Shown here one piece after another: positions 20,958 to 29,302 of a DNA stretch of 38,519 nucleotides. A program made the translations under genes and the position numbers. The stretch's first letter is position 1; every line of letters starts with the position of its first letter. Source of the stretch: an uncultured Saprospiraceae bacterium (lineage in GTDB: Bacteria; Bacteroidota; Bacteroidia; Chitinophagales; Saprospiraceae). The notes beneath the pieces are model-generated. The model made no database searches, was not told where the DNA came from, and saw only the letters and a list, made by a program, of their open reading frames with translations. Location: contig CAZDHV010000007.1 of NCBI GenBank assembly GCA_964505335.1, positions 1 through 38,519 of the forward strand. Direction: 5' to 3'.

Positions 20958-21848
20958 CTATCCGAATCGTTCCTTAATAAAATCATACAATTTGCTCATT
21001 CTCAAGTCTATGGTCGCTGGTCCTGTTCTGATGTAGAAGTGGTCAAGATTATCATTGGTCACATAACAAGGGATCGTTCCTGATTGGACATCTATGCGCA
21101 GAACCATCTTATCCTCGATATACTCGGTATGGTAGTGGATATGCTCCATATGTATGGCGCCAAGTCTGGCGTTAATGATGTTCGTGACGAACAGGAGCAT
21201 CTTATCCTCATTAGCGAATCTATCCAGCTCTAATCCTACTATTGAACCATCATCTGCTACTCCGACTATCAGGGTACCGCCATCAGAATTTAAGAATGCG
21301 GCAATGGTCTTGAGAATGGCATGCGTGATTCTGGTATCTTTTTTATCAGATTTTAGATTCCATCTGAGCGTTGACTTAAACTCTATATGATCGGTTTCTC
21401 CGGATGATATGATCTCCGTGGTACAGGTCTGTTGTATGGACTTGAGATAGTTAGTGACCCTTTTGCCAAGTCTTCTTACAATCTTTAAGCTTAATGCTGC
21501 CGAGACCTTGGCAGGGTCAAATAAGCAAGAAGTATTTATCGATATGATCTTGCTTTCTTCCTGTGATACCAGTCTGCCCAATCTGAAGTCGCCGTTAAGG
21601 ATGCCGATTTCACCGACTAGGTCATGAGGGGATAACTCAAGTTTAGAATTGTCAGGGAAATGTAGCGAAAGGACTCCTTCTAACAGAAAGAAAACTTGAT
21701 CAGGTAAGTCATCTATTTCCCATATGATCTGGTTAGTCTCAGCTGTTTTATACGAGAGAATCGTACTGAGTTGACTGATTTCGTTTGGATTCAACCCAGC
21801 AAAAACTTCATGCTGGGTGATTATTTCCACCATTTCCTGTTTAGTCAT
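20958..21848 (-). CDS. Cyclic nucleotide-binding domain + Schlafen/AlbA_2 domain fusion protein
   Basis: N-half: VFAGL...QVFFLLEG...LVGEIGILNGDFR (cNMP phosphate-binding cassette). C-half: GETDHIEFKSTLRW...KTIAAFLNSDGGTLIVGVADDG...FYIRTG (AlbA_2). Confidence 0.88.
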   Translation of the reverse strand: MTKQEMVEIITQHEVFAGLNPNEISQLSTILSYKTAETNQIIWEIDDLPDQVFFLLEGVLSLHFPDNSKLELSPHDLVGEIGILNGDFRLGRLVSQEESKIISINTSCLFDPAKVSAALSLKIVRRLGKRVTNYLKSIQQTCTTEIISSGETDHIEFKSTLRWNLKSDKKDTRITHAILKTIAAFLNSDGGTLIVGVADDGSIVGLELDRFANEDKMLLFVTNIINARLGAIHMEHIHYHTEYIEDKMVLRIDVQSGTIPCYVTNDNLDHFYIRTGPATIDLRMSKLYDFIKERFG

Positions 21849-21857
21849 ATCATCAGG

Positions 21858-22451
21858 TTATGCTGCCGATTTATAGCCTTCTTCCTGTATGACTTCTATA
21901 CAGTCTTTAAACTGTCGCTGGTGTCTTATGTACCATACGATCAGGCCCAAGACAATCAGGCCTCCAATGATGTAATACTTATATTCACCTATCGCAGAAA
22001 AAGAATTAAGCAAGGCGTCAGCGCAGAAGTAGGCCAACCCGCCAAAAACTGATAACCAGATCAGAGCAGCGATGGCGGAGTACAACGCAAACTTTGCGTA
22101 GCTCATATCTCTCAACCCGGACAGCAACAATATCACAGTATTCACGCCATATAGGAATTTGTAACTTATCAGCAGTAACACTGGATTTTTATCATACCAC
22201 TGACTTGAGCTATCTACTTTCTTACTCAGGCGACTACTTTTTTCTAAAAGTTTGCGCCCATGATTTTTTGCCAAGTAGAATTTAAACCACCCTTGGAGGT
22301 ATGTACCTATAAATGCGGCAATAATGGCTCCGAGTAGGCTTTGCTCACCCAGCTTAGCGCCGACAATTGACGCTGTCAGGAAAACCTCCCCTTCGAGAAA
22401 GGTTCCAATCAGGGTTCCAATAAAGCCACAAGCATTTGACATCATGTCCAT
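21858..22451 (-). CDS. DedA/VTT (SNARE-associated) family membrane protein
   Basis: IGTFLEGE motif, AFIGT...FYLAKNHG, KFLYGVNT, FALYSAIAALIW; several hydrophobic helices. Confidence 0.85.
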   Translation of the reverse strand: MDMMSNACGFIGTLIGTFLEGEVFLTASIVGAKLGEQSLLGAIIAAFIGTYLQGWFKFYLAKNHGRKLLEKSSRLSKKVDSSSQWYDKNPVLLLISYKFLYGVNTVILLLSGLRDMSYAKFALYSAIAALIWLSVFGGLAYFCADALLNSFSAIGEYKYYIIGGLIVLGLIVWYIRHQRQFKDCIEVIQEEGYKSAA

Positions 22452-22593
22452 AATCAAAGTTTATAGGATGCTATTTGTTAGGAGAGCATCTTTTTCTTGA
22501 GAATAAACAAGTATAACCCTTCAGAAACTGAAAGTAGATATCTAATGACGCATTTCTCATTGTAGATTGGGCATTATCTGTCCATAGCCGAGT

Positions 22594-28136: not shown

Positions 28137-28241
28137 AAATCGAAAGTATGTCTTATTCTTTCATTGTTATTGCATTTGAGCTTGAAACAATCAACATTGA
28201 TGGTATGAATTGTGTTAATTTTATGGGTATATACACAAGTC

Positions 28242-29302
28242 ATGAAAATAACTCGAGTAACGCAGTCTAAAATAGGTTCGGTAGACTTCAATGATTTACC
28301 ATTCGGTCGGATATGTAGCGATCACATGTACATTGCAGAGTATGCGAATGGCGAGTGGGGACCAGGAGAAATCAAACCACTGGAGAACTTTAGCATCCAT
28401 CCCGCCAACTTGACATTACACTATGGTCAGTCAATATTTGAAGGGATGAAAGCCTCGAAGCACCACGATGGAACTCCGATGTTATTCAGAGTTGACAAAC
28501 ATATCGAACGCCTCAATAATTCGGCTGTGCGAATGTGCATGCCAGAAGTTCCTGCTGAGATGTTTAGCAATGCAGTGCGAGAGTTAGTGTCGCTCGAGAG
28601 CGCATGGATACCACCGCAAGAGGGTAGTGCTCTATATATCAGACCTTTTATGTTCGCAACAGAAGAATTTGTCGGAGTCAGAGCTTCGGCAACATACAAG
28701 TTTGTAATATTTACCTGTCCAGTAGGTCCGTATTATTCGAAGCCCGTGAGCCTTCTAGCAGATAGCACTTATGTAAGGGCATGTCCCGGTGGTATAGGCG
28801 AGGCTAAGACTGCAGGCAATTACGCTGCATCACTCTATCCTGCTCAGAAAGCTAACAAGCTGGGTATGATCAGATTATGTGGATGGACCCATTCGAATTC
28901 AAGTATATCCAAGAAGTTGGCACCATGAACATCTTCTTTATCATAGGAGGTAAGGCCTATACGCCGGCTATTAATGGAGCTATCCTCAAAGGAATTACTC
29001 GAGATAGTATGATCCACGCAATGCGAGACAGAGGTATTGAGGTGATCGAAAAGAACCTTTCCATTGATGAAGTAATCGAAGCAAGCAGAGCAGGTAAGCT
29101 GCAAGAAGTATTTGGGACTGGCACTGCTGCCGTGGTGTCATTAGTTCATAAAATAGCTTACAAGGACACAGTGATCGAATTGAATCCAGAAAACTATCAA
29201 ATCGCTCCTTCGCTTAAGAAATATATTGATGGGATGAGAGTAGGGACTATCGACGACAAGTTTGGTTGGACTGAGCGAGTTGTAGAAGCTGTGATGAGCT
29301 AA
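28242..29302 (+). pseudogene. ilvE: Branched-chain amino acid aminotransferase, split by a one-base frameshift at ~28863-28865 (real lesion or sequencing error)
   Basis: 5' part: LHYGQSIFEGMKA, LYIRPF, EAKTAGNYAASL. 3' part in another frame: YDQIMWMD...EVGTMN...ILKGITRDS...EVFGTGTAA. One extra base restores KLGYDQIMWMD. Confidence 0.9.

Follow-up and report, generated by a model that had tools for sequence, protein, structure and literature searches.

A conserved fusion of a cyclic-nucleotide-binding domain with a Schlafen domain, found away from defence islands, is a candidate cNMP-switched RNase

The window analysed here, a 38,519-nucleotide stretch of DNA from an uncultured Saprospiraceae bacterium, encodes a protein in which a CNBD (cyclic-nucleotide-binding domain) of the CRP type precedes a Schlafen/AlbA_2 domain. 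The protein belongs to a conserved fusion family, carried by marine-type bacteria, that avoids defence islands. In its biochemical core it is probably a cNMP-gated RNase, whatever purpose that activity serves. The more specific reading favoured here, a dimeric tRNase that is switched by a cNMP (probably cAMP) and wired to host signalling, is put forward tentatively, as somewhat less than an even prospect.

The original prediction had described a CNBD with a GE-x8-R phosphate-binding cassette, a C-helix leading directly into a Schlafen core with an E-x4-EFK motif, and the lack of a CRP-type HTH; this two-domain observation is confirmed (Table 1). The Pfam match to cNMP_binding (residues 36-107, E 3.6e-9) scores 36.9 bits against a cut-off of 27.5, and the cassette residues GEIGILNGDFR are in place at positions 79-89. 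SLFN_AlbA_2 is matched at residues 151-279 (E 6.9e-20, 72.2 bits, cut-off 25.3), with ETDHIEFK at residues 151-158 and the second stretch quoted for the Schlafen core, AFLNSDGGTLIVGVADD, at residues 184-200. The quoted C-helix stretch, LSLKIVRRLGKRV, occupies residues 119-131 of a helix that spans residues 117-138, after which the Schlafen domain begins at residue 143 and continues to residue 296. No HTH family was matched in the 296-residue protein by Pfam, and no NCBIfam family was found for it. A promoter and terminator scan gave matches at chance level (12 versus 9.0 and 3 versus 2.5).

Table 1 Positions of the fusion gene, its domains and motifs, and the adjoining gene in the window
Feature	Positions	Strand	Remarks
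cNMP-binding + Schlafen/AlbA_2 fusion gene	20958..21848	-	296 aa (P0001); M6 possible as start instead of M1
Cyclic-nucleotide-binding domain with C-helix	21435..21848	-	residues ~1-138; Pfam PF00027 and VIA-align against CNBDs
Phosphate-binding cassette G79-E80-x8-R89-L-G91	21576..21614	-	conservation among 174 relatives
C-helix, residues 117-138	21435..21500	-	DSSP H117-138; predicted dimer coiled coil
Schlafen/AlbA_2 nuclease domain	20961..21422	-	residues 143-296; C-terminal 'EFKSTLRWN' clade
Catalytic motif E151-x4-E156-F-K158	21375..21398	-	near-invariant in relatives; motif as in PMC13056530
DedA/VTT membrane gene	21858..22457	-	ends 9 bp upstream of fusion gene

The fusion is widely conserved. 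A homologue search returned 1,705 matches at E 1e-5; among the 120 matches listed, one of which is the window's own protein, 119 carry both domains by precomputed annotation, and the best 119 of the 1,705 relatives are 46-65% identical to the window protein. From 342 sequences collected, 221 span both domains and 174 are non-redundant at 90%. These comprise 147 sequences of clade A and 27 of a divergent clade B, whose fusions, among them those at loci L100-L112, L118, L126, L128, L133, L136 and L141, do not have the STLRWN loop. An artefactual or chance fusion is ruled out by the 46-65% identical relatives, which align, and by the motifs kept in the 174-member set. In the ESM Atlas, the cNMP + Schlafen architecture is represented by two clusters with automatic names (70 and 128 members). 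Of 80 loci kept from a genome scan, 44 are fusion loci. Most come from Saprospiraceae, Chitinophagales and Bacteroidales bins; Pirellulaceae contribute four, and Verrucomicrobiales, Ectothiorhodospiraceae and Rhodothermales one each. Across Saprospiraceae the fusion is distributed patchily. At E 1e-20, matches occur in 35 of 201 genomes; not counting the window's own genome, they span both domains in 29, five of which carry two copies of the fusion. One copy, in genome G139 (L101 / L142), ends at 203 residues, inside the Schlafen domain, and the copy at L040 is also interrupted.

Within the cassette, G79 and R89 are invariant (174/174), E80 is present in 170 of 174 sequences (with D in three more) and G91 in 169 of 174. 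In clade A, the mean identity of the cassette is 0.62, versus 0.39 for the rest of the sensor domain, a difference that would suit a fixed small ligand. The original prediction had been made to depend on conservation of the catalytic acidic residues among homologs, and these are kept: E151 is found in 173, E156 in 171 and K158 in 172 of the 174 relatives, the E-x4-(E/D)-x-K triad is complete in 171/174, and triad and G-E-R cassette occur together in 168/174. SLFN11 has Ex4ExK as its catalytic motif, and RorSlfn5 also needs it (PMC13056530); the Ex4(E/D)xK triad is likewise required in Cash (PMC13462974). By domain, fold and motif, the sequence is that of a prokaryotic Schlafen (pSlfn, PF04326).

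The full-length AlphaFold model consists of two confident domains whose relative placement is uncertain (pLDDT 88.8, pTM 0.54). The superposition of the model on SLFN and Pycsar sensor structures, proposed as a check of the domain assignment, bore it out. The N-terminal domain (model residues 1-141) fits the PycTIR CNBD (8jsk; VIA Z 15.6, rmsd 5.2, 149 aligned) and also 2gau (Z 16.9, rmsd 2.2, 128 aligned), and the C-terminal domain, modelled separately (pLDDT 96.4), fits SLFN11 (7fex; Z 9.5). Above Z 8, the C-terminal domain matches Schlafen/AlbA-type chains only (7 of 48,161 chains); its VIA matches include 3lmm (Z 13.9, rmsd 3.1, 136 aligned) and SAMD9 (7ksp; Z 13.3). A Foldseek search returned the VIA match set again, together with SLFN14 and a SAMD9 tRNase domain. 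Structures of Cash and RorSlfn5 are absent among the PDB search matches, which has no bearing on likeness to them.

A CRP/PycTIR-type homodimer, in which the C-helix of one protomer packs on the nucleotide pocket of its partner, is predicted. When two copies were modelled with cAMP as an unscored passenger, a dimer score of 0.65 was obtained, against 0.00 for the best control. The score passes a mark that 20 of the 30 solved pairs attained, as did 1 of the 23 single chains; the pass may stem from likeness to, and possibly memory of, solved CRP-type dimers. At least 73% of the contacts recur between prediction runs, with pLDDT of at least 84. The predicted interface joins C-helix residues 116-140 to cassette residues 81-90 of the partner in a CRP-type pattern, and the Schlafen domains have no confident placement in the homodimer.

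The sensor pocket was compared with those of PycTIR and CRP. In PycTIR, G86, E87 and R97 bind the ribose and cyclic phosphate (PMC11224242); the cassette here has the same residues, and the invariant cassette Arg of the fusion family points to a cyclic phosphate as a feature of its ligand. The cassette Arg and the C-helix Arg are 41 residues apart both here (R89-R130) and in PycTIR (R97-R138). Positions in the C-helix were mapped by residue offset and alignment ends: the alignment of the profile with CRP stops at profile position 133, equivalent to CRP 124 and to V131 of the window protein, and R130, Y134 and L135 align with CRP positions 123, 127 and 128. The base-reading CRP positions 127 and 128 are here Y134 (159/174) and L135 (150/174). 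At position 135, Leu (150) and Phe (14) occur, and Asn is not among the six commonest residues of the 174 sequences. On this mapping, the cUMP determinant of PycTIR, Asn143, corresponds to Leu135, and the residue that follows the cassette Arg is Leu90 in place of Ser98; the sequence signature of cUMP recognition is absent. Because Tyr and Leu stand at the equivalents of CRP 127/128 and Leu follows the cassette Arg, the base is unpredictable by known rules, and a ligand other than cAMP is possible.

A quick tree was built from 102 Schlafen domains (those of L032, L040 and L101 were dropped as too short). The C-terminal Schlafen clade is shared with GmrSD, BrxL, receiver, Cache and PAS proteins, and the GmrSD- and BrxL-Schlafen proteins are 41-50% identical over the Schlafen domain. 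Pfam partners among 91 other representatives of the clade are receiver (5), Cache/PDC (6), PAS (1), HATPase_c_2 + GNAT (2), BrxL (3), GmrSD (3) and N6-methylase (1), most representatives having no annotated partner. Judged by these partners, the clade serves both defence and signalling-type architectures, and the receiver, Cache/PDC, PAS and HATPase_c_2 + GNAT fusions place it behind ordinary signalling sensors already. In the quick tree, the cNMP label requires two changes, and a supported subclade (99) unites the window protein with members from Saprospiraceae, Chitinophagales and Pirellulaceae; this tree shows an apparent transfer to Pirellulaceae. The clade's fusions of Schlafen with receiver, Cache and PAS domains (P0146, P0154, P0172, P0188, P0212, P0170, P0222, P0225, P0226, P0256, P0264 and P0268) are candidate two- and one-component signalling RNases. 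A further member, P0254, joins a 7TM GPCR-like protein to a partial Schlafen domain; it may be chimeric or reflect a eukaryotic capture.

A cyclase had been reported as missing from the window, with the signal expected to come from elsewhere, and the first statement holds while the second is supported: profile matches in the host genome (86% complete) are confined to contigs C57 and C164, each of which carries one of two class III cyclases. Both host cyclases show a K...D pair, in KTIGD and DIWG, which we take to mark them as adenylyl-type. The search for neighbouring cyclases that had been suggested came out negative around the family as a whole: the 806 ORFs at 74 loci include a single cyclase, a receiver-cyclase at a distance of about 7 kb. 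The cyclase HMM was built from three sequences and divergent cyclases may escape it. An adjacent-cyclase operon of the Pycsar type is ruled out by this count (1/806 neighbouring ORFs). On contig C164 (L081, 58-3529), a PycTM-domain gene and a probable metallophosphoesterase come after the cyclase, which contains TPR repeats; the cluster is Pycsar-like in layout but adenylyl-type in signature. On contig C57 (L082, 19-3138), a gene that ends in a cNMP-binding domain faces an HD-like gene and a class III cyclase, so that the host holds a small cyclase/hydrolase/receptor cluster.

Class III cyclases were found in 29 of 29 carriers versus 31 of 40 non-carriers (Fisher p 0.005), the latter sampled in list order from 166 genomes without a fusion match. 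Restricted to genomes of at least 4.5 Mb, the counts are 27 of 27 versus 17 of 22 (p 0.014). Carrier genomes have a median of 10 class III cyclase matches. One genome of the same genus as the host (G072, 99% complete) has neither the fusion gene, the DedA gene nor a class III cyclase; the flanking synteny is kept, with GH113 and SnoaL adjacent, and the roughly 1.7 kb that contains the fusion gene and DedA is missing, whereas six other cNMP domains are present despite the lack of a class III cyclase. The co-occurrence and the absence in G072 are suggestive, and they are confounded by the larger size of carrier genomes (median 6.4 versus 4.65 Mb), the non-independence of kin, the general commonness of cyclases and the single case that G072 represents.

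The genes around the fusion gene are of a housekeeping rather than a defence kind. The DedA/VTT gene is likely co-transcribed with it, and DedA/VTT was not seen next to other family members. The other annotated genes of the window have housekeeping, transport or metabolic functions, and no defence gene is annotated in it by Pfam or PADLOC; these neighbours speak for a signalling switch. Elsewhere in the window (28212-29302, + strand), an ilvE-like class IV aminotransferase is split into two overlapping frames of 238 and 141 residues, each carrying part of Aminotran_4, as by a single frameshift that is possibly an assembly error. No operon partner is conserved across 45 family loci, and the only neighbour clusters in at least 6 of the 45 are response-regulator-like, short-chain dehydrogenase and thioredoxin-reductase-like. 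At five loci (L004, L005, L009, L012 and L013), the family member has a glutaredoxin-thioredoxin reductase fusion no more than two genes away; a link to redox stress, or shared ancestry, is possible.

Proximity to defence islands, one proposed test of the anti-phage claim, was assessed with PADLOC at E 1e-15 within two genes, a neighbourhood narrower than the 10 kb within which 69.6% of pSlfns have defence genes (PMC13056530). The scan covered 145 of 148 neighbours of 44 family loci and 116 neighbours of 36 control loci of sister Schlafen fusions (GmrSD partner in 18/36, BrxL in 7/36). Raw matches were obtained at 11 of 44 family loci versus 23 of 36 control loci. Seven family matches were discounted as generic methyltransferases or EngA GTPase by Pfam, and five partial control matches (three mad3 beside an MlaE-type transporter, one CARF-galactosidase and one sigma-54 activator) were dropped as likely housekeeping. 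Credible defence neighbours remain at 4/44 family loci (PycTM at L009 and L011, Cas9 at L018 and PDC-S22 at L032) versus 18/36 control loci (Fisher p 9e-5; 6e-4 on raw counts; kin are non-independent). A mobile-element origin was rejected: no full-length fusion was found in 72,556 plasmids (0 of 18 matches), in 50,697 phages (0 of 2 matches) or in IMG/VR, and the GC content of the gene (0.416) is that of the genome (0.414). With these contrasts, the host-like GC and the replacement of the PycTIR Asn, the anti-phage and Pycsar part of the original prediction finds no support in the context.

PycTM-domain genes fill 4 of 254 slots within two genes of the fusion at 74 loci (three duplicates dropped), against an expected 0.15-0.4, with a profile that was partly built from these neighbours and matches that were Pfam-confirmed. 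They are weakened as a mark of defence here, since PycTM (PF18967) genes occur in 30 of 30 Saprospiraceae genomes, in 1-6 copies and even without a cyclase. Our reading of these neighbours is a weak connection with a nucleotide/phosphate gene cluster rather than with Pycsar. PycTM genes often have a long N-terminal part, and one PycTM gene of the host is flanked by ppk and a large phosphoesterase-like outer-membrane gene (G000:C32, 1-7347); the domain seems to be put to a use other than Pycsar. At four Bacteroidales loci (L038, L042, L043 and L044), a Ub-Mut7C RNase gene directly follows the fusion gene.

The central proposal of the original prediction, a one-component switch that joins a cNMP sensor to an RNase, is supported by the near-invariant motifs, the predicted CRP/PycTIR-like dimer and a signal source elsewhere in the genome. 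In the proposed mechanism, a cyclic nucleotide, probably cAMP from the stand-alone cyclases of the host, would enter the cassette, and the C-helix of the partner would close the pocket. By analogy with PycTIR, Cash and RorSlfn5, the ligand may tighten the coiled coil or drive the formation of higher oligomers and so align the Schlafen active sites, which would switch on Mg/Mn-dependent cleavage of tRNA. Such cleavage would slow translation as an ordinary output of cell signalling. The least certain elements are cAMP as the ligand, activation rather than inhibition, and the physiological purpose, which might be stress, dormancy or lifestyle switching.

Three other readings were weighed against this host-signalling tRNase. 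The same cNMP-gated tRNase could be an orphan anti-phage effector that causes abortive infection when, during infection, a host sensor-cyclase or a remote Pycsar-like cyclase supplies a cyclic nucleotide in trans; this is the main rival, although we consider it unlikely. Its architecture copies that of PycTIR, a CNBD with a toxic enzyme, as reflected in the Z score of 15.6 to 8jsk and a weak PADLOC match to PycTIR (E 0.0024). In genomes, its nearest Schlafen relatives are the fusions with GmrSD and BrxL, which lie in RM and BREX loci, and one DUF262-Schlafen and one Ig-Schlafen protein protect E. coli (PMC13056530). The patchy presence, with gain or loss inside one genus, points the same way and, with the apparent transfer, counts against the physiological reading, such patterns often being a trait of defence genes; the defence-fusion relatives, the PycTM-domain neighbours and the single cyclase among the neighbouring ORFs weigh against it too. 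The PycTM-domain neighbours at four loci and the TPR-containing host cyclase with its adjoining PycTM gene would also fit, as would the RNA ligase (PF09414) and AAA_33/HD protein directly after the fusion gene at L035 (11062-12857), which resemble an RNA-repair pair. Against an antiviral role stand the defence-neighbour counts (4/44 versus 18/36 loci), the defence score of 0 of the catalogued pSlfn40 member (PMC13056530), the lack of a full-length copy in plasmids, phages and viral contigs together with host-like GC, and the PycTM genes in all 30 family genomes, one of them cyclase-free.

The remaining two readings alter the sensor or the output. An inverted switch, in which resting cNMP inhibits the enzyme and loss of the nucleotide frees it, or a pocket that takes another nucleotide, a metabolite or a protein, is improbable. 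Leu135, in 150 of 174 sequences, is unlike Ser128 of CRP and Asn143 of PycTIR, the conserved Y134 might occupy the pocket or cap it, and GD or GP replaces GE in 4 of 174 relatives; the cassette Arg, however, is invariant (174/174), and both Cash (by cA4; PMC13462974) and PycTIR (by cUMP; PMC11224242) are activated by their ligands. Quite improbable, too, is a cNMP-regulated nucleic-acid binder without meaningful nuclease activity, with the Schlafen domain in place of the HTH of CRP. Members are named 'putative DNA binding domain-containing protein' in databases, one close fold match is a SAMD9 domain whose structure was determined with DNA (7ksp), catalysis is lacking in some Schlafens (PMC13462974), and triad residues are lost in 3 of 174 relatives, two of them in clade B (L112 and L128) with the cassette retained. 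Retention of the triad in the other 171 is hard to explain without catalysis, however, and a SAMD9 domain has also been deposited as a tRNase domain (9o0d).

If the host-signalling tRNase is borne out, it would be the first non-immune role in prokaryotes for the antiviral Schlafen domain. The characterised prokaryotic Schlafens in PMC13056530 and PMC13462974 are antiviral, and the former leaves open the role of the 30% of pSlfns outside defence neighbourhoods. The fusion family offers a direct test for such non-defence pSlfns, with a small, self-contained protein and a likely ligand that can be purchased. That a housekeeping messenger, cAMP or cGMP, directly activates a tRNA nuclease, so that translation is throttled by one protein without a transcription step, is a doubtful but consequential prospect; taken with the receiver-, Cache- and PAS-fused relatives, it would mean that Schlafen was recruited as a general signalling output. 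Gating by cAMP or cGMP would make tRNA cleavage a new output of cyclic-nucleotide receptors and would hint at a possible function for the numerous class III cyclases of these Bacteroidota. Should the family be defensive instead, host cyclic-nucleotide signalling could arm an unlinked abortive effector. In either role, a simple ligand-switchable RNase is predicted.

The original prediction knew of no characterised protein with this architecture. That part stands, in that no study of a cNMP-Schlafen fusion was found in the literature searched, which covered few subscription papers; the architecture itself, however, had already been listed as pSlfn40, or 'Cupin.pSlfn' (cNMP_binding.SLFN_AlbA_2), with WP_257682133.1 as one of 5,930 entries (PMC13056530, Supplementary Table 2). 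It is not among the architectures tested there, and the main text of that paper makes no use of the terms 'cNMP', 'cyclic nucleotide' or 'cAMP'. The Pfam domains and their order are identical and their positions similar (28-110 and 145-277 in pSlfn40, 36-107 and 151-279 here); a single entry is listed there, whereas the family described here has two clades and no fewer than 174 non-redundant proteins. The likeness is one of domain architecture; the clusters of 10 clade B proteins do not contain WP_257682133.1. Cash (Schlafen-Csx15, PMC13462974) shares a Schlafen tRNase with the E-x4-D/E-x-K motif, a cyclic-nucleotide messenger and a fused sensor. In Cash, however, the sensor is a CARF/SAVED-like Rossmann domain that reads the cA4 of type III CRISPR, to which the system is linked, whereas the protein described here has a CRP-type CNBD and a C-terminal Schlafen domain; no cNMP sensor is listed in PMC13462974 or its six supplementary files, and no type III CRISPR was seen beside the family loci, where Cas9 at L018 is the sole CRISPR neighbour. 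With the GmrSD-Schlafen (EcoSlfn7/pSlfn7, DUF262) and BrxL-Schlafen proteins, compared through GmrSD- and BrxL-Schlafen relatives, the C-terminal Schlafen clade is held in common, but those belong to defence loci and have a nuclease or an ATPase as partner. The CNBD fold and predicted coiled-coil dimer are those of CRP/FNR proteins (E. coli CRP, Clr), from which the fusion differs by the absent HTH and by Tyr and Leu at positions 127/128. PycTIR (PMC11224242; 8jsk) shares the N-terminal CNBD, the G/E/R cassette, the C-helix dimer (predicted here) and the fusion to a toxic enzyme, but its effector is TIR rather than Schlafen, it adjoins a PycC cyclase that has no counterpart here, and Leu135 stands for its uracil-reading Asn143 and Leu90 for its Ser98; neither of the Pycsar effector domains, TIR or transmembrane, is present in the fusion. 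In design, the protein is like PycTIR or Cash, yet it is neither Pycsar nor Cash.
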